From an uncultured Candidatus Saccharibacteria bacterium (GTDB taxonomy: Bacteria; Patescibacteriota; Minisyncoccia; Phycocordibacterales; PALSA-1337): a stretch of DNA of 64,000 bases. The translations under genes and the position numbers were made by a program. The notes under the pieces are model-generated. The model did no database searches and was not told the origin of the DNA. It was given only the letters and a program-made list of their open reading frames with translations. This document shows positions 5,322-56,415 of this stretch, piece by piece (within the stretch, counting starts at the first letter, position 1; the number at the start of each line of letters is the position of its first letter). The stretch covers positions 14,037 to 78,036 of the forward strand of contig CAYOER010000001.1 of the NCBI GenBank assembly GCA_964403205.1. The letters run 5' to 3'.

Positions 5322-6026
5322 ATGTTAACACCAAGATTTTGGAAGAGATATTTTGAGGAATATGATTTGTTAAATGAACTTACTCCGTACAGAGAATTAT
5401 TAGATGCGATTTGTGTACGTGCTAATATTAATACTGGTAACAACATACTTGATGTAGGTTCTGGTACTGGAAATTTATCTATAAAACTTGAGAAGTATGG
5501 TGCGATTGTAACAGGTATAGATTTTTCCAAGGAAGGACTAGAAATTCATAGGAAAAAATCAAATATAACAGAGTTAATTTATGGGGATATTAATCAACCA
5601 CTTCCTTTTTCTAATGACCAGTTTGAAACGGTTGTTTCAAATAATGTGCTTTATACCGTTTCTAGGAATGAACGTTTAACTGTAATGAAAGAACTTTATC
5701 GTGTTCTTAAACCTGGAGGTCGTATTATTGTTTCTAATGTGGTTGAGGGTTTTAGGCCACATGTTATTTATTTTGATCATGTCAATAGTCTTATTAAAAA
5801 AATAGGTATTTTTAAAGCTTTTATTGTTGTATTGAAATTATCTCGGTCGACGATTAAGATTTTATATTACAATTATAAGATTAATATGGAAAATAGACAC
5901 GGTGTGTATGATTTTTTTGGTTTAGGAGAACAGAAGAAATTACTAGAGGAATCAAAGTTTAAGAATGTGTCAGAAGACTATATTTTATATAGTGGTCAAG
6001 CTGTTTTAAATTGGGGTATAAAATAG
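5322..6026 (+). CDS. class I SAM-dependent methyltransferase
   Basis: Motif I ILDVGSGTGNLS, a post-I acidic residue (GIDFS), and LKPGGRIIVSN. Confidence 0.7.
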   Translation: MLTPRFWKRYFEEYDLLNELTPYRELLDAICVRANINTGNNILDVGSGTGNLSIKLEKYGAIVTGIDFSKEGLEIHRKKSNITELIYGDINQPLPFSNDQFETVVSNNVLYTVSRNERLTVMKELYRVLKPGGRIIVSNVVEGFRPHVIYFDHVNSLIKKIGIFKAFIVVLKLSRSTIKILYYNYKINMENRHGVYDFFGLGEQKKLLEESKFKNVSEDYILYSGQAVLNWGIK

Positions 6027-6089
6027 GTGATTATTTTCCATCATGTTAGGATTAAGATATATTAATAATAATGTTATAATATTTTTATC

Positions 6090-6842
6090 ATGGTTGTATA
6101 TAGAAGTTTAAAAATTTGCAGTAATAACTTATACGAAACTATTGTATTCGGAGAAGCAATAACAAATGAAGAACTTCAGGAAGTATATCGTTTCCGTTAT
6201 GATGTATATTCTGATAAAGATTATATTGACAAGGATAAATATTCTTACGGAATTGAAAAAGATGAATATGATGAACAGAGATTCTGTCGTTATTTTGTTG
6301 CAAAAATTAATGAGAGGTTAATTGGTACGATAAGAATTATTACATGTGACCCTCTTCCGACTGAGTATAGTTTTTCTTTTGAGGAACCAGAAATTATGAA
6401 ATCTATTCCACGATCTCAACGTGTAGAACTTGGTAGGTTTATTATAATTTCTCCGTACAAACAGAATGGAATTTATCTACCTCGTGGCCTAGTTATGTTA
6501 TTTTTGTTAGATATTCTAAGTTCATATGGTCTTAGAAATAATTTTTTAGGAGGTTATGCTTTTATTAAAACAAGCTTAGAGCGTAAAATGAATAAATTAA
6601 ACTTACCTATCAGAAAAATACCGATTTATCATCAAATATATCCTAAACAAGGAATTCTTTATAAATATTTTACACAAAAAGATGATCCAGTTATTCCTAT
6701 CTATTTTTTGACCAAAGATTTTGCAGATTATTCGAATTCAAGAATCAGAAATTCGTTAATGTTCAGTAAAATTAATGATAACGATTATGTGCTGCATAAT
6801 AATTTATATACTCAATTTTTGAAAATGCTTAAAATTATTTAA
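6090..6842 (+). CDS. putative GNAT-fold N-acyltransferase (N-acyl amino acid synthase / autoinducer-synthase-like)
   Basis: YRFRYDVYSD...YDE-x-RFCRYFVA...LIGTIRII...VELGRFIIIS resembles the LRY-VF/EDE-D/ELSR pattern of FeeM/PEP-CTERM-associated N-acyl amino acid synthases. The assignment is from memory of the family pattern only. Confidence 0.35.
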   Translation: MVVYRSLKICSNNLYETIVFGEAITNEELQEVYRFRYDVYSDKDYIDKDKYSYGIEKDEYDEQRFCRYFVAKINERLIGTIRIITCDPLPTEYSFSFEEPEIMKSIPRSQRVELGRFIIISPYKQNGIYLPRGLVMLFLLDILSSYGLRNNFLGGYAFIKTSLERKMNKLNLPIRKIPIYHQIYPKQGILYKYFTQKDDPVIPIYFLTKDFADYSNSRIRNSLMFSKINDNDYVLHNNLYTQFLKMLKII

Positions 6843-39264: not shown

Positions 39265-40041
39265 TTAATTATATCTTGGTACACCTACATTCTTTGTTTC
39301 CATCTGTATATCTCCGAAATTGCTATTCTGTTCTACATAGATAGTTCCCTGCTTTACAAGCTCAAGCATTGCGAGAAAGCCCACAATAACATTTATCTTT
39401 TCACCCTTATGATTATTAGCAAAATCTTTGAAACTCATTTTGAGCCCTACTGTTATACGTTTCGTCAGATTATCTATCATTTCTTCTAGACTAATTACTT
39501 TTCTTACTATTGCTTTTGGTATATTTTCTTTTTTAGGCAGACTATTGATTATATCTTTTATACTTTTTGCTAGAGATAATAGATTCATACTTTCATGAGG
39601 AGAAAAGATCGGCTCAATATTTCTTGCCTGTGATTGAGAAAATATTACTTCTTTACAGAATATCTCTTTTATATTGAGACTTGCTTCTTTTATTCTCTTA
39701 TATATTTTCAAACGTATTTCTAGATCATGGACATCCACCTCTTCTTCTTCTGTAAGAGATAGAGTAGGTAGGAGTGATCTGGACTTTATAAGTAGAAGAG
39801 TAGAGGCAATGAGTATGAATTGGGCACTTTCTCCTATCGGTAATTTATCAAATTGTTCTATATGATGTATATAATCATCTGTAACCTTTGCCAGAGAAAT
39901 ATCATTAATAAAAAATTTGCGCTTTTCTATTAGTGACAATAGTAGATCTAGAGGTCCTTCGAAGACTTCGGTTTTGATTTTGAATTTTATATCTGGAACT
40001 ATCTTTTCTGCTTTTATAGCTTCTATGGAGGAGTTATCCAT
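39265..40041 (-). CDS. scpA: segregation and condensation protein A
   Basis: FEGPLDLLLSLIEKRKFFINDISLAKVTDDYI is the ScpA N-terminus. Confidence 0.85.
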   Translation of the reverse strand: MDNSSIEAIKAEKIVPDIKFKIKTEVFEGPLDLLLSLIEKRKFFINDISLAKVTDDYIHHIEQFDKLPIGESAQFILIASTLLLIKSRSLLPTLSLTEEEEVDVHDLEIRLKIYKRIKEASLNIKEIFCKEVIFSQSQARNIEPIFSPHESMNLLSLAKSIKDIINSLPKKENIPKAIVRKVISLEEMIDNLTKRITVGLKMSFKDFANNHKGEKINVIVGFLAMLELVKQGTIYVEQNSNFGDIQMETKNVGVPRYN

Positions 40042-40118
40042 GAGGGAAATTATAGCATAAAAATAAAAAGCCAGGAGGATAGAACTCCTTGGCTTTCATT
40101 AATTTCTCTGATTGCGAG

Positions 40119-40598
40119 CTAGCTCGCAATGCCACACATTGCCTGCCGACGCTTCTTGCTATGCCCATTTCTGCCGTTGCGCCCATGGGTGCTATTGGCG
40201 AGAGCGACAATTTCTTCATTTGAAATACCGCCTCGAATTGGAAGGACAAGGGCTGGCTTACATGGAAACCAATCCTCTGCAATCACATCGGATTGCTGAG
40301 TCGGGAAGACTGCATCCTCCACCGGCTTTCTGGCAGTTTTTCCATCGAAACTCTTGCGAGGTCCCCAGATCCAGGCACAGAGTTTGTTGTCTGTACTTCT
40401 ACCGTCTAGGATCAGGACGATCAGATCCCCAGTCTGTGGATGTTCGTCGAGGTGGTTTTCAGTGATCCACCCAGACTCAGTCTCTCTGCAGGAATCGATG
40501 TGGATATAGACTTCGCCTTGGCTGGTATTTTCCAAGCTAGCAAAGCCGAACCCCCGATTTCCGAATCGAGTCACTGTCGCAAACCTAATCTGTGCCAT
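40119..40598 (-). CDS. cold-shock-domain (CSD) protein with a ~100-aa C-terminal extension, in a G+C-rich (about 55%) islet
   Basis: The N-terminal ATVTRFGNRGFGFASLE...GEVYIHID matches the CSD RNP motifs (G.VKWFN..KGFGFI ... DVFVHFS). Confidence 0.6.
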   Translation of the reverse strand: MAQIRFATVTRFGNRGFGFASLENTSQGEVYIHIDSCRETESGWITENHLDEHPQTGDLIVLILDGRSTDNKLCAWIWGPRKSFDGKTARKPVEDAVFPTQQSDVIAEDWFPCKPALVLPIRGGISNEEIVALANSTHGRNGRNGHSKKRRQAMCGIAS

Positions 40599-40691
40599 AT
40601 ATATCCTTAATCGAATTGTGTTGTGCTAAAGCAAAGAGATAGCCTAAAATAAGGATCCCCAAGCTCGTTCTATATAACCCTAGCATACTAT

Positions 40692-40706
40692 TGACTAGTT
40701 GTCAAT
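40692..40706. promoter_or_regulatory. near-palindromic operator-like site TTGAC-tagtt-GTCAA upstream of the CSD gene
   Basis: TTGACTAGTTGTCAA (12/15 palindromic positions) about 95 nt upstream of the CSD start; it overlaps a -35-like TTGACA on the coding strand. Confidence 0.3.
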
Positions 40707-40783
40707 ATTAATTTAATATTACCCTACTTTTCTGTGGACATTATACCAAAAAGTTCGGATTTTTCGGCGGGCGGGCTTAAATT

Positions 40784-42562
40784 CTAATTACCAACAACCT
40801 CAAATAAGCACTTATTTTTTGTAACTATATTTTTGAGATATTCGTCACAGAAATTTACCATATCCTTGAAGGGTAAAAACTTTGGCTGGGTGTTGGTAAT
40901 TTTATAAGGGAAAATATAGAAATTCATTTTATTATCTCCCAGCACTACTCCGGCTCCAATGCCTTGATTAGTCTCTGATGTTTGCTGATCGAAGATTAAA
41001 CTTCCTAAGGAATAAAAAATTGTCCTGTTCTTATATATTTCTACTGACTGAATCACATGTGGATGGTGACCAAAAATGACATCCGCTCCATTATCAATAA
41101 GGCTATGTGCTATCTCTTTTTGGATTTTTGATTGAAGTTTATCGTATTCGTAACCCCAATGAATGTTTATAACAACATAGTTATTTTCTGACTTCAGTCT
41201 CTTAACGAGAGGATAAAAATTCTCTACGGGCACAGGTTGATTTGTTTGGTCTATGCCCACAAATGCAATATTCTTGTCATGAACCTTCTTAATTACATAA
41301 CTTGATTCGAGAGATCGGTTTCCAAAGTAGCCAATATTGTAATTACTCAAATATTTTTGTGTGCTATCAATTCCCGCTTGGTAACAATCAAATGAGTGAT
41401 TATTCGCAAGATTTACTAAATCAAAATTAGCGGCGTATAACAGCTTGTTGGTAGTAGAGGCAAACTGGAAAGTAAGTTCCTTATTTTGGCACTCAGCTCT
41501 AGGTATCTCAATAATTGGACCCTCAAGATTGCCGATAATAAAGTCCACCCCCTTTAAGAAATTACCTTCGGTCCCACGAATAAACTCGAACGGGTCCTTT
41601 CCTTTTTGAGTGTATACCCTTACTCCACGATCAAACATCATATCTCCAAAGTTAAGAATAGAGACGTTTTCACTCATTACTGGTTTGCCTTTTATGAAAT
41701 ATGAAAAGAGATAACTTGTTACATCCTCTGAATCAAAATTTGCGCCAAATATAGCTGAGTTTGTATTCTTATACTCCATTTTCTGAGCGCCTTTACCTTC
41801 AAGATATTTCAAGAGAGTATATATTGACGGAGGACTATCTATCTCAAGATTTAGGACCGTATCGTAATCAAAATTATCTATAGCAGATATACTTTTCTTA
41901 TCGTGAAATTCTGAAACAATCTCTTTACTGTGATGTGAGAAATCTACGCTAGCAAGAATAAGAGTATCAACAGGGAGAGTTTTATTTAAATCACTGACTA
42001 GCTGATCTAATTTTGCTTTCGATGTCGTTCTTTTGAGGATTATAGGTACTAATTTTGAATCAGGAAAAGCTTTTTTAATGTAAGAAACATCTGCAGCGAT
42101 TGAATGCTCTATTTCAAATGGCTGTTCGTTATTATGAACGATACTATCCTGGAGGAGTTGATCAATGGTTTTACTATCCGGCTCGAGTATTCCCCACGGT
42201 GTTTGGTATGGATATTTAGAAACCAAAATATCATCAGTTCCCAAACTATAATGATTTGGTCCTATTAGTACAATCGTCTTAGGGTGTTGTTTTTTTAAAC
42301 TAGCAAAGAATTGTGCAATTTCTGAGGCCACATACAGATGATGCGAAAGAATCCCACCATAAACCTTCTCATCAAACACCTTCTTGGGCACAATCTCTTC
42401 TACATCCCCGTAGAATGATTTATCCTTAAAAGAAGCGTAGTGGAAATTTGTGTATACAATTTCTTGCACCTTTTCAGCTTTCTTGGAATAGCCTATGGCT
42501 AGCAGTGCAACTAAAGCCACCCCTAAAATTATAGGTAATAATATCAGGGTGATCTTCTTCAT
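40784..42562 (-). CDS. membrane-anchored fusion of a MEMO1/AmmeMemoRadiSam-B-like domain and a CapA/PGA_cap metallophosphoesterase domain
   Basis: N-terminal half: YGGILSHHLYVAS ... TIVLIGPNHY ... TPWG ... EHSI ... LVPIILK ... SVDFSHH (MEMO pattern). C-terminal half: HWGYEY ... GADVIFGHHPH (CapA signature). Confidence 0.55.
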   Translation of the reverse strand: MKKITLILLPIILGVALVALLAIGYSKKAEKVQEIVYTNFHYASFKDKSFYGDVEEIVPKKVFDEKVYGGILSHHLYVASEIAQFFASLKKQHPKTIVLIGPNHYSLGTDDILVSKYPYQTPWGILEPDSKTIDQLLQDSIVHNNEQPFEIEHSIAADVSYIKKAFPDSKLVPIILKRTTSKAKLDQLVSDLNKTLPVDTLILASVDFSHHSKEIVSEFHDKKSISAIDNFDYDTVLNLEIDSPPSIYTLLKYLEGKGAQKMEYKNTNSAIFGANFDSEDVTSYLFSYFIKGKPVMSENVSILNFGDMMFDRGVRVYTQKGKDPFEFIRGTEGNFLKGVDFIIGNLEGPIIEIPRAECQNKELTFQFASTTNKLLYAANFDLVNLANNHSFDCYQAGIDSTQKYLSNYNIGYFGNRSLESSYVIKKVHDKNIAFVGIDQTNQPVPVENFYPLVKRLKSENNYVVINIHWGYEYDKLQSKIQKEIAHSLIDNGADVIFGHHPHVIQSVEIYKNRTIFYSLGSLIFDQQTSETNQGIGAGVVLGDNKMNFYIFPYKITNTQPKFLPFKDMVNFCDEYLKNIVTKNKCLFEVVGN

Positions 42563-42565
42563 GTG

Positions 42566-44188
42566 TTATCTAAGTAATACTCCACCCCATTCTGCGACTA
42601 TGAATCCATTGCGCTCCGGTGTTACAGGTAGTACCTGTGGCTTTATATCTTTTGCTTGAGTTAAACCTTTTGCTGTCAACATAACTCTTATAACTGTATC
42701 TGGATAAACAGGAGAAATCTTGAGAGGTGCCATTTGGTCAAGCTGATTCTTTGGCAAGAATGAGATCTGGTAATACGGCATATCACTGAGCTTCGTAACC
42801 CAATATTCTTTGAAGTCTGCAATTTCCTTAGTATTCAATCCGAGTATCTTTAATTTTTCATCGAGGAAGCTAGCAATATTTTCTTTCTTCACTATCCAGC
42901 CTTCTGTTTCGTTTATCGGATAATTAAGACCGATTCCAGACCAGTAAAGATAGTCGTAATTATTGCCCGTCTTAAGATCGACAACATTACCGTTTGGATT
43001 CGCTTCTACGTTCCACCCGTCATCAGTATATTGAGGGATGGTCTTAATGAATCCTCCATTTGGAGTAACTTGAACATTAAGATTAGTTTTCTCCGTAGGA
43101 TAGAGATAGATTACAGGTTTACACTTCTCTGCCGCAATAAGGAATCTTTTATTCTTAAACTCAATCCATCTTCCCAGTGGGTCCTTCCAGTACATCAAAG
43201 GATGAAAATTCGTAAATTGCTGATAAGTATATTTATTTGTCGCTACTTGCTGATAATTACCAGATTCGTTACTTATGTACGCAACAGTATTTTTGTCATT
43301 ATACAAAGCCTGAAGGGTTGGATCTGAAGAATTTTTATACTCGTAAAAATCTTCTCCATTTGATGCCTTACCTGCGAGAATTAATCTGTCGTTCAGCTTC
43401 AATTCTGTATCTTTTACATCGGCAAGATACATACAAACAGCTCCACATCCTCCTATGCGAGTGAATTCATATTGCTCATTATTTTGTACATTACCGTTAA
43501 AAGTAAGATTTACTTCTCCGTTTTCAGCATTCACAAACGGTATTTTAAAATCGTATGCAATTGCTGTGTGGTCAGGCAACTCAATCATGATGCAACCATG
43601 ATCTGTTAGATAAAAATCTCCGAGGCCCACCATACTAAACAATTTCTTTACAGGCTTTACATCTTTGTAAAGCATACTTGGGGAGTACCATTTCTTCATC
43701 TTGTAATTTGATCCGGGGAAAGCTATTTCTTCCGGTAGATCAGAAATCCCATGTATTGTAAACTTGTTTTCCTCTAAAGAAACCTTTTTACCATTTGAAA
43801 TAACATAGTGATCGTAATAATCGCCTCCCATTTCGCCTTGAGCACGCAAATATATTGTTTGACCCTTCAGGGCTCCATTTGTGATCTGGCCAACAATATA
43901 TTTAGTTGAGTAATCACAACCTGGTTTGCCTTCACAATTTTCAGATACATTCGTTAACTGATTTTGCCATGCAACTTCAACCAAATAGGGTGTAACACTG
44001 AATGATATGGATGGTTCAGGTTGGTTATCAGTAGGTGTGGTATTTTTTACTGGATTATTTACAACGGGACTATTATCCACTATTTTATTAAGGGACACAT
44101 CGCCTATTTTTTTGTTTTGGAATATAAAAAATCCTGCTACTACAATAACTATTATACCGACCACAACCCAAATATTTTTGTTATGCAT
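42566..44188 (-). CDS. hypothetical secreted protein (N-terminal TM/signal anchor), probably co-transcribed with the CapA fusion
   Basis: A 540-aa ORF with an N-terminal hydrophobic helix and no recognised motif; it is 3 nt from the downstream gene. Confidence 0.5.
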   Translation of the reverse strand: MHNKNIWVVVGIIVIVVAGFFIFQNKKIGDVSLNKIVDNSPVVNNPVKNTTPTDNQPEPSISFSVTPYLVEVAWQNQLTNVSENCEGKPGCDYSTKYIVGQITNGALKGQTIYLRAQGEMGGDYYDHYVISNGKKVSLEENKFTIHGISDLPEEIAFPGSNYKMKKWYSPSMLYKDVKPVKKLFSMVGLGDFYLTDHGCIMIELPDHTAIAYDFKIPFVNAENGEVNLTFNGNVQNNEQYEFTRIGGCGAVCMYLADVKDTELKLNDRLILAGKASNGEDFYEYKNSSDPTLQALYNDKNTVAYISNESGNYQQVATNKYTYQQFTNFHPLMYWKDPLGRWIEFKNKRFLIAAEKCKPVIYLYPTEKTNLNVQVTPNGGFIKTIPQYTDDGWNVEANPNGNVVDLKTGNNYDYLYWSGIGLNYPINETEGWIVKKENIASFLDEKLKILGLNTKEIADFKEYWVTKLSDMPYYQISFLPKNQLDQMAPLKISPVYPDTVIRVMLTAKGLTQAKDIKPQVLPVTPERNGFIVAEWGGVLLR

Positions 44189-45975: not shown

Positions 45976-46049
45976 GAAACACAGACTCAACTAACGCCAC
46001 GCTCTGAATTAACACTCAGGCGTGGCGAGGGTTGTTATGTAAGGTTATT

Positions 46050-46442
46050 TTATTTAATCTCCACTATCTCCACCCCACTTTCCCCTACCCTTACCTCTGC
46101 ATATCTATAGACATTTGCATTTTTATAATTCCCTACTGTAGTGATCTTATGAATATTCCCTACTTTTTCTACTTTTAGAATCTGACAATATAGCCACGGC
46201 ATATCTATAGATTCATCACCCTCTCTAATTTCAAAAAAATAATCATGAATAAGCATAAGTATTGCCTGATCTATACATGAAAAAGCATAATAATGATTCA
46301 TGGTTCTATACTCTTTACGTAGAGCTTGATCAAAAAATGTTGCTGATTCTAAAGATGAATAAGAAATAAGAGCTAATAGTATGCCTGATACCATGAGTAC
46401 AATTATTATGGCGATGAAACCTTTATTATTTTTCTTTTTCAT
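46050..46442 (-). CDS. pseudopilin-like protein (N-terminal prepilin-like hydrophobic segment)
   Basis: MKKKNNKGFIAIIIVLMVSGILLALISY has a charged leader, a Gly and a hydrophobic helix, but no Glu at +5. Confidence 0.45.
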   Translation of the reverse strand: MKKKNNKGFIAIIIVLMVSGILLALISYSSLESATFFDQALRKEYRTMNHYYAFSCIDQAILMLIHDYFFEIREGDESIDMPWLYCQILKVEKVGNIHKITTVGNYKNANVYRYAEVRVGESGVEIVEIK

Positions 46443-46584
46443 AATTTTTATCTATTTTTCTTTGTTCAAGATCAATAATCATATAGACAGACGAAAAAAC
46501 ACCAATCATTAGTATTGCCAATAAAGCTGTATATATTATTGTTTCTATAAGAGTATTCCCTTTTTTATTTTTTCTTATATTCAT
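46429..46584 (-). CDS. unannotated 52-aa type IV prepilin-like ORF (class III signal peptide)
   Basis: The reverse-complement translation is MNIRKNKKG|NTLIETIIYTALLAILMIGVFSSVYMIIDLEQRKIDKNYEKEK, with a G-N-T-L-I-E prepilin peptidase motif. Its ATG overlaps the TGA of the upstream pilin gene (ATGA), and its 3' end overlaps the next pilin-like gene by 14 nt. Confidence 0.55.
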
Positions 46585-47801
46585 TTTATTTTCATTATTC
46601 CTATTCCATGACTATCTCCAGTGGCAAAATAGAAAGTGTTTCTATCACAGGTAAAAGCATTCGGTAGAAATCCGAGAGCTCTATCTAATATTTTATTTTC
46701 TAGTGTTTGATCTAATATTTGTAATTCTTTACCAGGAGACTTCGTAGATATATAGATATTAGGAGGACGAATAAGAGTATCATAAACACCACCTGGTATA
46801 TCTCTAGAATATTGTGATGATGAGGAAAATAAAAATAATTCATGATTATTAATATTATTAAATCCACCAACTGTTCTACTGAAAGCGTAAGAATCTTGGA
46901 AAAATGATAGGGATTTCCCTTCTTGAGTTTCATATCCAGATGGAGAAAATGAATCTATTTCTATAATATTAGTATGATCAGAAATATTTAACACAATCAT
47001 CTGCTCTTCATTTGCTGTAGCTAGATAAGCGAGATTACCTTTCACATATATATCATTTACGAGTGTATCAGTCTCAAATCCCCCTAGATAATTTGGTAAA
47101 TATGGATTAGAAACATCTATAATAGCGAATTCCCTACCGTTCCATTTCCTAGTACCTAGATATATTTTATTTTTATAATAGAAAATACTTTCTGCCCAAG
47201 GCGCAGTTGTAGATGCCGTGGGTAATGGTAATTTCAAAGTAGAAATAAGTATTGGATTTTCTCTATTTTCAATATCCAATATTTGCATTTGACTGACTGT
47301 GCTCTGATTTGCAAGATACGCATAGTGTCCTGCAATCTCTAGAGAAGAAAGTCCAGGACTAGTATGTATAGATGAAATAATACTCGATGATGCAGGATCT
47401 CTGGCATCTATAATATAGAAATCTGGAGCAGATAAAATACTAGAATCTGTTGTAAGGTATATAATCCCATTTCTCACTTCTATATCTGTACTGATATTCC
47501 CTATTCCAAGATCTATACCTTGTGAATACAGAGTTATATTTTCTGAATTAAAATATATATTTTCATAACAATTATCTCTACCCCATTCTCTACTATAATC
47601 ACTTAATTTATATTGATTTTCTAGATTTGGTATTTCAGCTTCCAATTTCTCTAGATTTTTCTCTGCTTGATGGTATAGAGCTTGCATAGTTTCTGATAGA
47701 GTCAGTGAGGAAATGAGAAAAAGAGTCATGAGGGAGAAAGCAATCATGATTTCAAGTAAAAGAAAACCATTTATAAATTTTAAATTTAATTTATTTTGCA
47801 T
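46581..47801 (-). CDS. large type IV pilin-like protein (prepilin N-terminus plus a ~370-aa beta-rich domain)
   Basis: N-terminal KFINGFLLLEIMIAFSLMTLF (G-F-x-L-x-E). Confidence 0.7.
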   Translation of the reverse strand: MQNKLNLKFINGFLLLEIMIAFSLMTLFLISSLTLSETMQALYHQAEKNLEKLEAEIPNLENQYKLSDYSREWGRDNCYENIYFNSENITLYSQGIDLGIGNISTDIEVRNGIIYLTTDSSILSAPDFYIIDARDPASSSIISSIHTSPGLSSLEIAGHYAYLANQSTVSQMQILDIENRENPILISTLKLPLPTASTTAPWAESIFYYKNKIYLGTRKWNGREFAIIDVSNPYLPNYLGGFETDTLVNDIYVKGNLAYLATANEEQMIVLNISDHTNIIEIDSFSPSGYETQEGKSLSFFQDSYAFSRTVGGFNNINNHELFLFSSSSQYSRDIPGGVYDTLIRPPNIYISTKSPGKELQILDQTLENKILDRALGFLPNAFTCDRNTFYFATGDSHGIGIMKIK

Positions 47802-52001: not shown

Positions 52002-52805
52002 TTAATAGCAAGTTGTCCCAAGCTTTAATGATTTTGTTAAGTAATACATAGGGTTTTTGAATAATTCTGGTGAGGAAAATCTGAATGAAAATTCCCTCAC
52101 ATATTTTTCTAAATTAGTTGACCAATGATGATGATACATTCTTCTAACAAAAGTACGGTAGTTTCCAAATACTCCTTCGATTTCTGATGTATGAGCAAAT
52201 TCAAATCTTTTATGTATATCTCTACTGTGTTTAACTGGCCACCATTTGTTAATTCCTTTGTAAATCGCTGCACCATCAGTCCACAGTTTAGATCCTGGTT
52301 TAACTTTTCTAAAGAGAAAATATCCTGCATGATGTCTCTGTACTGATGTCCCAATAATGACATCATATGCTAGTTTTCTAGTTCCTTTTTGTTTACCCAT
52401 AACCAATGTCATATCCTTGAAATACGCCTCGTCTAACTGCACTATACGCTCTAGAATGTGGGTTTCCCGTGGTAATTGTCCTCTGAATGTGTCAAACCAC
52501 TTACGTATACAAAGTGGAGATAGTTCTGTAAATGCAACCGTTTGTTTAACTGGTATCTCACAACTCTAACACCAGAGTATCATCCACCACTTTTGAAGTG
52601 GTAATTTTAAATTAGAAAGCCATGTGTGTGACAGGAGAGAGAATCTGATGCGACAATCTTTACACCTATATCGACCTGATTGTATTCCTATTCGTCTCGA
52701 CTTACATTCAGGACAAAATATGTTCTTGCCAAACAATATTCTGCGAATATATTTTCTAATTTGTGCCTCACTTGGTATTTGATTGTGTGTATACATAATG
52801 TCCAT
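52002..52805 (-). pseudogene. IS1595-family (ISXO2-like) transposase disrupted by a frameshift
   Basis: The N-terminal piece (52566-52805) has the zinc ribbon CPECKSRRIG...RYRCKDCRIRFS. The C-terminal piece (52002-52442) has VQLDEAYF (the first D of DDE) and HTSEIEGVFGNYRTFVRRMYHHHW...REFSFRF. The linking segment (KWFDTFRGQLPRETHILERI) is readable only in a different frame from the N-piece. Confidence 0.75.
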
Positions 52806-55437: not shown

Positions 55438-56415
55438 TCACCCCCACTTCGTCTTTATATACTCCGTCGTCTCACTCATAGAGAATGGCTGAGTGGAGTT
55501 CCCTACTCTTACAAAAAAGTCTTCTTTTTTATCTCCATTTGTGAGATATGCTGGTTTATGACTTTCTTTTACATCTACAATACAAATCTCTTTATTTTCT
55601 ATTTTCTCAAATTTTATATTTATATATTTAGAAAAAGCTAAACCAATCATATTTTTTATAAGAGTATTAACATAATTTTCAAATCCGTCTTTATCTTTTC
55701 TCTGTTGCAAAGTTTTATAATCATTTTCTAGACCGATTATTTCACCATTATCTCTTACACCGATAAGCAGAATTCCACCAGAAGCATTGAGAAAACCTAC
55801 AATAGTTTTCATAATAGATTTCTCCATTTCCTTATTCATTTCATTCTTACGGATGTCATATCGCAATGTTTCTTTGAATTCTAAAAGTAATCCTTCACCA
55901 TCTTCTATTAAACTCTTTATATCTTTTATGAAAATCTTGCCAGATGAACTATGTACCATTTGCTTTATTATATATACATATTCTTCGAAATTCCCTATAT
56001 TCTTTATTTTTGTCACTCTCTCATTATTATGTTCAAGAATAATAGTGGCATGATTCATCATCCTACCTAGAGGACTCTGATATGTCTCTACAGATGCTAC
56101 GTCAGACAAACCTACACTTTTCTTTTTTCTAAACAAAAGCCCACTTTTCTTTATTATTTCTTTTTCTCTGATTTCATAATGAGAGAAGTACCAATCTAAA
56201 AAGAGAATACCAATATAGATAAATTGAAAAAATGAGAAGATTATTATTTCAAAGATATCAAAACGGATATAATCATGAAAACCAAGATTCCTAAACATCA
56301 TTTCATAATTACCAAGAAAAGAAACGGCAAAGAAGAATAGAGAAGCGATAATTTCCATAGCTATTAGATTGCGTAGGAAAACCAATGGTCCTTCTTTTAT
56401 TATTATTACTCTCAT
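55438..56415 (-). CDS. membrane protein fusing a bPH_2 (YdbS/YdbT-like bacterial PH) domain to a Schlafen-type AlbA_2 putative DNA/RNA-binding domain
   Basis: N-terminal two TM helices plus KKSGLLFRKKKSVGLSDVASVETYQSPLGRMMNHATIILE (bPH_2). C-terminal EGLLLEFKETL...KTIVGFLNASGGILLIGVRDNGEIIGLEND (AlbA_2 pattern EFK..FaNt.GG.lliGv.d.G.i.G). Confidence 0.55.
   Translation of the reverse strand: MRVIIIKEGPLVFLRNLIAMEIIASLFFFAVSFLGNYEMMFRNLGFHDYIRFDIFEIIIFSFFQFIYIGILFLDWYFSHYEIREKEIIKKSGLLFRKKKSVGLSDVASVETYQSPLGRMMNHATIILEHNNERVTKIKNIGNFEEYVYIIKQMVHSSSGKIFIKDIKSLIEDGEGLLLEFKETLRYDIRKNEMNKEMEKSIMKTIVGFLNASGGILLIGVRDNGEIIGLENDYKTLQQRKDKDGFENYVNTLIKNMIGLAFSKYINIKFEKIENKEICIVDVKESHKPAYLTNGDKKEDFFVRVGNSTQPFSMSETTEYIKTKWG

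Follow-up and report, generated by a model that had tools for sequence, protein, structure and literature searches.

A helix-only mini-pilin encoded within a probable minor-pilin module of a Patescibacterium

The question raised by this locus is whether an open reading frame (ORF) of 52 codons, set between two larger pilin-like genes, is a gene at all and, if so, what a pilin of this size can do. Minor pilins prime the assembly of type IV filaments and present effectors at the tip. Patescibacteria, for their part, are obligate epibionts thought to locate and bind their hosts by type IV pili. The host of the genes described here is a Patescibacterium of the class Paceibacteria, near Ca. Taylorbacteria, and the window (the whole stretch of DNA that was analysed, 64 kb) carries an ordered set of genes on the minus strand. 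Read from the sequence, these encode a T2SSE ATPase, a T2SSF platform protein and then products of 406, 52 and 130 aa (table 1). This is the arrangement that a preliminary description of the stretch had given, namely three tandem pilin-like genes behind pilB/pilC-type genes. Its ATGA start/stop overlap is likewise present, and the 14-nt overlap that it reported at the other end of the small ORF consists of 14 sense nucleotides which, with the stop codon, make 17 nt in full. The ATPase does not have the long N-terminal domain, and against the NCBIfam models for GspE, PilB and ComGA every score was under the cut-off. A homologue of it is placed upstream of the pilin trio in nearly all related loci, where the position of the platform protein is also kept.

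Table 1. Coordinates, within the window, of the pilus genes and of the features discussed in the text; a slash marks the end of the leader.
Feature	Position	Strand	Remarks
PilB/GspE-type assembly ATPase, 376 aa	48866-49996	minus	Pfam T2SSE, E 1.3e-111
PilC/GspF-type platform protein, 346 aa	47810-48850	minus	Pfam T2SSF, E 3.8e-44, two stretches
Propeller pilin, 406 aa, modular, candidate tip adhesin	46581-47801	minus	start MQNKLNLKFING/FLLLE
Mini-pilin, 52-aa precursor, head-less	46426-46584	minus	start MNIRKNKKG/NTLIE; Pfam N_methyl match
Mini-pilin leader MNIRKNKKG	46558-46584	minus	
Mini-pilin mature helix-only part, 43 aa	46429-46557	minus	
Mini-pilin stop codon	46426-46428	minus	
130-aa pilin, Glu5-less, GspK-like cap or nucleator candidate	46050-46442	minus	start MKKKNNKG/FIAII
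ATGA overlap, TGA of 406-aa gene and ATG of 52-aa gene	46581-46584	minus	read from sequence
17-nt overlap, mini-pilin 3' end and 130-aa gene start	46426-46442	minus	read from sequence
Inverted repeat, probable operon end	45988-46034	.	between convergent 130-aa gene and 95-aa ORF

The 52-aa ORF is indeed a gene, and dozens of the ultrasmall Patescibacteria have retained it. The class III signal previously noted in it is genuine: the product matches the Pfam family N_methyl (PF07963) at 27.8 bits, over a gathering cut-off of 21.2, and in a six-frame translation of the whole window the 406-aa ORF is the only other one with such a signal. The preliminary description had made the case for the gene depend on conservation of its frame in homologous loci, and of 51 species-level loci that could be evaluated, 46 have the frame in this slot, so that its refuting condition clearly fails. 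The gene is under purifying selection, with a dN/dS of 0.14-0.15 against its two nearest relatives (median 0.28). Identity at codon positions 1, 2 and 3 is 0.56, 0.82 and 0.37, the second position being the most conserved, and stops occur in each of the alternative frames in 43/43 loci. A search of 5.8 billion proteins returned 84 clusters (90% identity), all of 43-81 aa, a size range that was also found by exhaustive HMMER search; the family is missed when ORFs shorter than 60 aa are discarded. The mature protein has 43 residues here and 31-54 across the family. All of 82 family members have Glu5. The 41 sequences taken from the loci all have Tyr9 as well, which in the set of 82 is conserved to at least 90%. 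Position +1 is occupied by Asn, where Phe is usual, and Asn is also found in the nearest relatives. The word 'unannotated', which had been applied to the ORF, does not hold, as the ORF has been called on 10 public contigs and some of its relatives have received automatic names (e.g. 'prepilin-type N-terminal cleavage/methylation domain-containing protein').

The three genes are packed closely, and the packing is itself conserved. The distance from the stop of the propeller-pilin gene to the start of the mini-pilin is between -8 and +19 nt in 40 of 41 loci, with overlaps of 4 or 8 nt in 20/41. At its other end the mini-pilin runs into the third gene in 36 of 40 related loci, the commonest overlap being 8 nt, and a Shine-Dalgarno (SD)-like motif precedes the mini-pilin in only 2/43. 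Conserved stop/start packing and the scarcity of SD-like motifs fit the tight translational coupling proposed in the preliminary description. Two other readings of the DNA were considered and rejected. A frameshifted single gene is rejected on the variable stop-to-start spacing among relatives and on the separate signal of each product, and an alternative genetic code with UGA as Gly on the long intact table 11 ORFs across the window.

Where did so short a pilin come from? In four loci from sister lineages (L066, L050, L051 and L054), the mini-pilin slot is occupied by a pilin of 148-154 aa. In the first of these, the genes on either side of the full-size pilin are homologous to the propeller pilin (hhalign 99.8%) and to the 130-aa gene (98.9%). 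The N-terminal helix of the full-size pilin aligns with the mini-pilin profile (hhalign 99.4%), and the match stops at about residue 40 of the helix. With its 43 mature residues, the mini-pilin has no C-terminal globular alpha/beta head. Because the same slot in sister lineages holds a pilin of about 150 aa with a homologous N-terminal helix, the mini-pilin is, judging from these alignments, a derivative of a minor pilin of that size by loss of the globular head. Equating the C-terminal motif of the family, DYxLLIxNFHE, with EGNFxLxKIxW at the alpha-1 end of the full-size relatives was unsupported, since the hhalign alignment ends earlier.

The C-terminal half of the mini-pilin is variable and sometimes deleted. 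In the window, a deletion of about 40 nt has removed the DYxLLIxNFHE motif; the motif, and any contact made by it, is dispensable because it is deleted in this copy. In a whole bacterial class one minor pilin has stayed under purifying selection since the loss of its entire globular domain, which amounts to a natural experiment, and the sequences suggest that an alpha-1 helix with Glu5 may be enough for the role of the mini-pilin.

The two neighbours of the mini-pilin are pilins of quite distinct build. The 406-aa protein begins with a 12-aa leader ending in Gly and the sequence F-L-L-L-E. A single long alpha-1 helix comes next and is joined by a flexible linker to an LVIVD beta-propeller of seven blades. 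The propeller is supported by Pfam and by an AF2 model, in which the alpha-1 helix and the propeller are present and the pilin sheet is absent. E17 of the family (Glu5 of G/FLLLE) is at least 90% conserved. Pfam N_methyl does not match this protein, and its family profile gave nothing significant against PDB sequences. Like modular type IV pilins such as PilB and PilC of Streptococcus sanguinis, it combines a class III signal with Glu5 and a non-pilin functional domain. The beta-propeller, standing in place of the globular head, is presumed to be an adhesin.

The 130-aa protein, in turn, has its own leader, Gly and a 60-residue alpha-1 helix, and its structure model consists of helix and sheet only. 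The mature N-terminus, F-I-A-I-I, has no Glu at +5, and a conserved Glu is absent from the N-terminal helix in the family alignments; two Cys are invariant. It has no Pfam or NCBIfam match (T2SSK and PilX_N included), and its pilin fold, as predicted, resembles that of GspK. It can be likened both to GspK and to PilA of S. sanguinis, which is small and Glu5-less, although it does not have the alpha-helical insertion domain of GspK, for which 130 aa is too short.

We favour, with a probability of roughly 0.6, the reading that the three minor pilins form the tip of a type IV filament or prime its assembly, as a module of an adhesin pilin, a helix-only pilin and a cap pilin. Coupled translation of the three genes would give roughly equal amounts of their products, and prepilin peptidase would cut each precursor after its conserved Gly. 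The three alpha-1 helices would then form a staggered bundle in the membrane, on the PilC-type platform, putatively as a 1:1:1 complex. The mini-pilin would provide the filament core with a helix bearing the invariant Glu5 and would add no bulk beside the large propeller, and the Glu5-less 130-aa pilin would sit on top. Below them a conventional major pilin, from a separate gene, would polymerise and push the propeller out at the tip of a pilus that would incorporate the trio. If so, this is a minimal three-part tip module. Since Patescibacteria are thought to attach to their hosts by type IV pili, the module with its propeller is a candidate for host recognition in the Paceibacteria, a large and uncultured group.

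The surroundings of the trio bear on which filament this would be. A conventional pilin of 150-170 aa lies directly downstream in 30/52 related loci, with an almost invariant N-terminus (GFTLIEILVVIGIIAVL...NPARQFKLARDSQR). The other 22/52, and the window, have no conventional major pilin gene adjacent to the trio. Against the module reading, the 64-kb window and a further 9 kb or so on either side of it yielded no gene for a prepilin peptidase, a major pilin, PilT, PilMNO or other pilus proteins, and hence no candidate for the filament that the module would prime in this genome. The dispensable C-terminal motif, the leaderless and fused variants described below and the lack of a match to any curated minor-pilin family also count against it.

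Several known systems resemble the trio in part. The PilABC tip complex of S. sanguinis is encoded by an operon and unites a small Glu5-less pilin with modular pilins that have bulky adhesive modules and an 'unusually short pilin moiety' (PMC9934059); PilA-PilB-PilC has been proposed as a reduced H-I-J-K priming complex (PMC9934059; PDB 7o5y). Both have an operon of three minor pilins and join a minimal pilin moiety to a bulky module, adhesive in S. sanguinis and presumably so here. They differ in that the module is an LVIVD beta-propeller here and a vWA or lectin domain there, that the propeller pilin here is without any pilin beta-sheet, and that one of the three subunits here is alpha-1 only, a kind not described for S. 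sanguinis. By sequence, the two systems are not homologous.

The core priming complexes of the T2SS and T4aP, of the GspK-GspI-GspJ and FimU-PilVWX(-PilY1) type (PDB 3ci0, 5vtm; PMC7541494), are likewise operon-encoded minor pilins beside assembly genes, and a beta-propeller tip effector would be common to the T4aP (PilY1) and the trio. Here, however, propeller and pilin helix belong to one protein, whereas PilY1 is a separate non-pilin protein. In addition, the trio has three subunits, one of them head-less, against four in complexes of this type. None of the trio genes matched the curated GspH/I/J/K, PilV or ComG models above cut-off. In particular, the mini-pilin and its full-size relatives gave only weak, sub-threshold matches of the N-terminal helix, spread over several of the families GspH, GspI, GspJ, ComGD, ComGE, ComGF and PilV, and no curated minor-pilin family (ComGE, GspI, GspH, GspJ, ComGF) was matched above cut-off. 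A ComG operon is not indicated by the NCBIfam scores, which were 241.7 bits for ComGA (cut-off 300), 136.5 for ComGB (240) and 18.2 for the mini-pilin against ComGE (49); the resemblance does not go beyond the N-terminal helix.

A further parallel is the T4P-2 pilus of the Saccharibacterium TM7x, whose minor pilin PilX2 carries a heptabladed propeller and is required for host binding (PMC11623550). The trio would likewise belong to a Patescibacterial type IV pilus with a propeller-bearing minor pilin. The propeller of PilX2 is made of RCC1 repeats and the protein has no predicted PilD signal, whereas the 406-aa protein has LVIVD repeats and a G/FLLLE signal; a helix-only minor pilin is not reported for TM7x in the same paper (PMC11623550). 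TM7x belongs to the Saccharimonadia and the trio to the Paceibacteria. Neither a helix-only minor pilin nor the Paceibacteria module was found described in the literature searched, a weak indication given its incomplete coverage.

Would the mini-pilin have to enter the filament at all? It could instead be a membrane-resident pilin mimic that regulates or scaffolds assembly; it might, for instance, occupy the platform or the peptidase, or act as a chaperone for the alpha-1 helix of the propeller pilin. Some variants look the part. In three loci (L059-L061) the ORF begins at MLIE, without leader or Gly, and therefore cannot be a peptidase substrate there; like these leaderless variants, two very short ones of 36 and 42 aa (L019, L025) keep the transmembrane helix alone. 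The dispensable C-terminal tail also suits such a role, and in an operon without PilMNO-type alignment proteins a small bitopic helper is conceivable. Yet Glu5 is invariant and the signature at G-1, +3, +4 and +5 is kept, which is needed for filament registration and not for an anchor, and the mini-pilin descends from a genuine full-size pilin at this position of the operon. We consider the mimic unlikely.

The preliminary description had offered two roles for the mini-pilin, the major filament subunit or a priming minor pilin. The second agrees with the gene context and is the one we infer; the first is quite improbable, since 30/52 loci have the conventional pilin directly after the trio. 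As a major subunit, the mini-pilin would polymerise into an ultrathin helix-only filament in which the propeller and cap pilins are minor. Helix-only major pilins do exist, as in the Flp/Tad (type IVc) pilins and Geobacter PilA-N, which are major subunits. Like them, the mini-pilin is in its mature form little more than an alpha-1 helix (about 40-60 residues). Flp pilins have a G/xxxxEY motif and the TadA/B/C/V machinery, and Geobacter PilA-N has its head supplied by a second protein, PilA-C. The mini-pilin, by contrast, has a T4a/T2SS-like N-terminus (G/xTLIE...Y9), with Thr or Ile at +6 and Tyr at +9, so the Flp motif is missing, and Pfam Flp gave no match at E up to 0.1. Its gene lies between minor pilins and its neighbours are of the PilB/PilC type (T2SSE and double-T2SSF proteins), which is not a Tad neighbourhood. 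Nor is this a split pilin of the Geobacter type, as the downstream 130-aa protein has a pilin helix of its own.

The want of an adjacent conventional pilin in the window and in 22 loci, and of any in the window flanks, speaks for the major subunit, as do the 1.8 nm type IV pili observed in a Saccharibacterium (PMC11623550). Against it, the slot is a minor-pilin slot in sister lineages, the C-terminal half is variable, and a gene without an SD motif that is coupled to low-copy tip components would be unexpected for a subunit needed in thousands of copies. A narrower version, restricted to the lineages without an adjacent conventional pilin (this genome included), would make the 43-residue pilin the main subunit of an ultrathin, bare alpha-1 filament capped by the propeller. 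It is very doubtful; if true, a T4a/T2SS-type machine would be producing an Flp-like fibre.

Finally, a decaying, functionless remnant of a truncated minor pilin gene, for which the origin by domain loss, the varying C-terminal end and the further deletion in the window copy could be cited, is extremely improbable and already largely refuted by the conservation pattern, that is, by a similar length kept across the species-level loci and the 84 clusters, a dN/dS of 0.14-0.28 with the second codon position most conserved, and a start still tightly placed beside the upstream stop.

In two loci (L056, L057) one ORF encodes both the mini-pilin and the cap pilin, and the membrane topology of its product does not readily fit two pilins that are inserted independently. 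Scans of the window with Rfam and for tRNAs gave no hits, and consensus scans of the window for promoters and terminators gave counts at or below shuffle expectation. The inverted repeat beyond the 130-aa gene was not called by the consensus terminator scan; its 15-nt arms are 80% complementary and lie 17 nt apart.

In the window, three pilin genes follow pilB/pilC-type genes, and the middle one, a 52-codon ORF encoding only a leader and the alpha-1 helix (the mini-pilin), is a real, conserved minor pilin gene; that it is a gene is agreed by six lines of evidence. Its product reaches 27.8 bits against Pfam N_methyl (gathering score 21.2), and the exact protein is present, without a name, in a public collection. 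Moreover, the ORF is called as a gene on 10 public metagenome contigs (groundwater and other sources), with the same two neighbours every time. Its absence from the ORF track is thus due to a length cut-off rather than to a lack of annotation, and the term ‘unannotated’ used in the preliminary description does not truly apply. Both overlaps reported there were borne out: the ATGA reads from the sequence exactly as described, and the 14-nt overlap with the 130-aa gene becomes 17 nt once the stop is counted. A six-frame motif scan of the 64-kb window returned no class III signals other than those of the 406-aa and 52-aa ORFs. The pilin genes lie among housekeeping genes (AspRS, BipA, ScpA/B, HisRS, TruB).

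Features of the pilin locus in window coordinates (slash, position following the cleavage-site Gly or its equivalent).
Feature	Position	Strand	Detail
T2SSE ATPase, 376 aa	48866-49996	-	Pfam E 1.3e-111
T2SSF platform protein, 346 aa	47810-48850	-	Pfam E 3.8e-44
406-aa ORF (propeller pilin)	46581-47801	-	N-terminus MQNKLNLKFING/FLLLE
52-aa ORF (mini-pilin)	46426-46584	-	N-terminus MNIRKNKKG/NTLIE
130-aa ORF (cap-like pilin)	46050-46442	-	N-terminus MKKKNNKG/FIAII
ATGA stop/start overlap, 406-aa ORF and 52-aa ORF	46581-46584	-	
17-nt overlap, 52-aa ORF and 130-aa ORF	46426-46442	-	14 sense nt + stop
Inverted repeat	45988-46034		Between the 130-aa gene (last of the row) and a convergent 95-aa ORF

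The 406-aa protein family comprises 147 clusters in Patescibacteria, and its alignment led, among GTDB representatives, to 52 species-level loci, which carry the names Taylorbacteria, Paceibacteria, Nomurabacteria or, as a mislabel, ‘Saccharibacteria’. The region downstream of the propeller gene was evaluable in 51, and 46 of these carry a mini ORF in the slot. An ORF of 36-66 aa with a leader, a Gly and xTLIE...Y directly follows the propeller gene in 42/51; beyond these, locus L058 has a 45-aa version and three loci a leaderless one (see below). A full-size pilin of 148-154 aa holds the position in three loci and a fusion ORF in two. Mean pairwise identity at codon positions 1, 2 and 3 is 0.56, 0.82 and 0.37 (30 ungapped codons, counted from the Gly at the cleavage site), and each of the five alternative frames is interrupted by stops in 43/43 sequences. 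Pairwise dN/dS is 0.14 and 0.15 against loci L011 and L012, respectively; for 438 pairs the median is 0.28.

Shortness is a property of the whole family. A profile of 41 mini-pilins, run against 5.8 billion proteins, matched 84 clusters; each is 43-81 aa long, and some are automatically named PulG, PulJ, PilW or FimT. When 1.84 billion representatives were searched exhaustively with HMMER, 46 clusters came up at E up to 1e-10, nearly all of 46-81 aa and matching the whole profile; matches below ~57 bits are ordinary 120-180-aa pilins, aligned over profile positions 1 to ~42 only. Glu5 is invariant in 82 family members; Tyr9 occurs in every one of the 41 locus-derived mini-pilins and in at least 90% of the 82. 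Both residues are also invariant in the nearest full-size pilins (e.g. P0301, 154 aa), which match the mini-pilin profile with an hhalign probability of 99.4% over 45 columns. P0301 occupies the same operon slot, with a propeller-pilin homologue upstream (99.8%), a counterpart of the 130-aa gene downstream (131 aa, homologous at 98.9%, 14-nt overlap) and then a 153-aa N_methyl pilin; Doudnabacteria-type loci L050, L051 and L054 share this layout. In the sister lineages (L066:1-2662 and L050:4537-7654), the slot holds a 148-154-aa pilin, and in L050 a further 150-aa pilin precedes the propeller pilin, so that its layout, with four minor pilins, comes closer to H-I-J-K. Judged by the shared slot and the homologous N-terminal helix, the mini-pilin corresponds in position to a minor pilin of ~150 aa that has shed its whole part beyond the alpha-1 helix.

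Shortening goes further in some loci. In the window (46426-46470), the mini-pilin has lost ~40 nt compared with L011 and L012, which removes the family's C-terminal DYxLLIxNFHE motif and places the start of the 130-aa gene further into it (overlap 17 nt, 8 nt being usual); those of L019 (36 aa) and L025 (42 aa) stop just past the hydrophobic helix. Three loci (L059:~6026-6157; L060 and L061:~6032-6162) have a 43-aa mini ORF that starts with the residues MLIE, 10 nt ahead of the TGA of the propeller gene, lacks leader and Gly and is therefore not processable by prepilin peptidase. Such leaderless and ultra-short variants speak for a membrane-resident helper, never incorporated into the filament, but invariant Glu5 argues against this reading, which we consider unlikely. 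In two divergent species (L056:5934-6557, 207 aa; L057:1905-2447, 180 aa), mini-pilin and cap-like (GspK-like) pilin form one ORF, which is Rosetta-stone evidence for a functional link. The fusion runs from a leader and G/FSLLE helix through a ~22-residue charged linker to a second ‘KG/F’ hydrophobic helix and a head; its membrane topology does not fit two standard pilins, and both topology and processing are puzzling.

The order ATPase, platform, propeller pilin, mini-pilin and cap-like pilin is preserved in almost all loci. In 40/41 loci, the mini-pilin starts -8 to +19 nt from the propeller-gene stop (20 of these show an overlap of 4 or 8 nt); it also overlaps the next gene in 36/40 and is preceded by an SD-like motif in only 2/43, a combination that fits termination-reinitiation translation. 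A pilin of 150-170 aa whose N-terminus (GFTLIEILVVIGIIAVLAAVVLVAINPARQFKLARDSQR) hardly varies, presumably the major pilin, directly follows the trio in 30/52 loci (L016, L020, L022, L024 and others), ~100-1200 nt downstream of the third gene. This gene is not adjacent in loci of the window's subclade, and none was found in the window or ~9 kb of extra flank. For this genome, the mini-pilin as major subunit of a helix-only filament, an option raised in the preliminary description, keeps some standing because of that absence; however, a conventional pilin gene is usually present, the mini-pilin descends from a minor pilin and its expression signals are weak, which makes this option distinctly improbable. 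A non-functional remnant is scarcely credible, as the conservation pattern contradicts it.

The best-supported reading is that the trio forms a putative reduced minor-pilin tip or priming module. The 130-aa family (60 clusters, all unnamed or ‘hypothetical’, with no Pfam domain) conserves G/F, lacks Glu5 and has two invariant Cys. Its AF2 model (pLDDT 92.6) has a helix at 6-66 and a 4-5-stranded sheet, and gave no Foldseek match. In the GspK-I-J structure, the filament is capped by a Glu5-less subunit. The 406-aa protein (Pfam LVIVD repeat) is modelled (pLDDT 87.3) as a helix (10-63), a disordered linker (61-74) and a 7-bladed propeller made of 28 strands, with no pilin sheet. The mini-pilin would supply the core of the tip bundle with a Glu5-bearing alpha-1 helix, its missing head may leave space for the propeller, and coupled translation would yield the three products in roughly equal amounts. 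Minor pilins prime assembly and then locate to the tip, presenting effectors such as PilY1 (PMC9934059; see also PMC7541494). The nearest worked-out parallel is PilABC of S. sanguinis, which combines a small Glu5-less pilin with modular pilins whose bulky modules sit on ‘unusually short’ pilin moieties, and which its authors proposed as a rudimentary H-I-J-K complex (PMC9934059). In TM7x (Patescibacteria), a propeller-bearing minor pilin, PilX2, is required for host binding (PMC11623550). Unlike in these systems, one subunit of the trio is a helix alone; neither a conserved helix-only minor pilin nor this Paceibacteria trio module was found described in the searchable literature.

Across the 64-kb window, part of a low-GC (25-42%) genome, scans returned no tRNA genes and no Rfam families at gathering threshold. 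A local GC-rich patch (40040-40780), with no credible Rfam match, holds many overlapping ORFs on both strands, the longest of 159 aa (40119-40598, minus strand; no Pfam match). Two large genes lie downstream of AspRS (40784-44188, minus strand): one encodes a 592-aa Memo-like + PGA_cap fusion; the product of the other, of 540 aa, has a transmembrane helix at its N-terminus and lacks Pfam domains. Adjoining the BipA gene is a 146-aa IS1595-family DDE transposase fragment (52002-52442, minus strand; Pfam E 6e-13), also found on public contig L001/L010. Finally, a 325-aa protein (55438-56415, minus strand) in which a bacterial PH domain (bPH_2) is joined to a Schlafen AlbA_2 domain may be defence-related.
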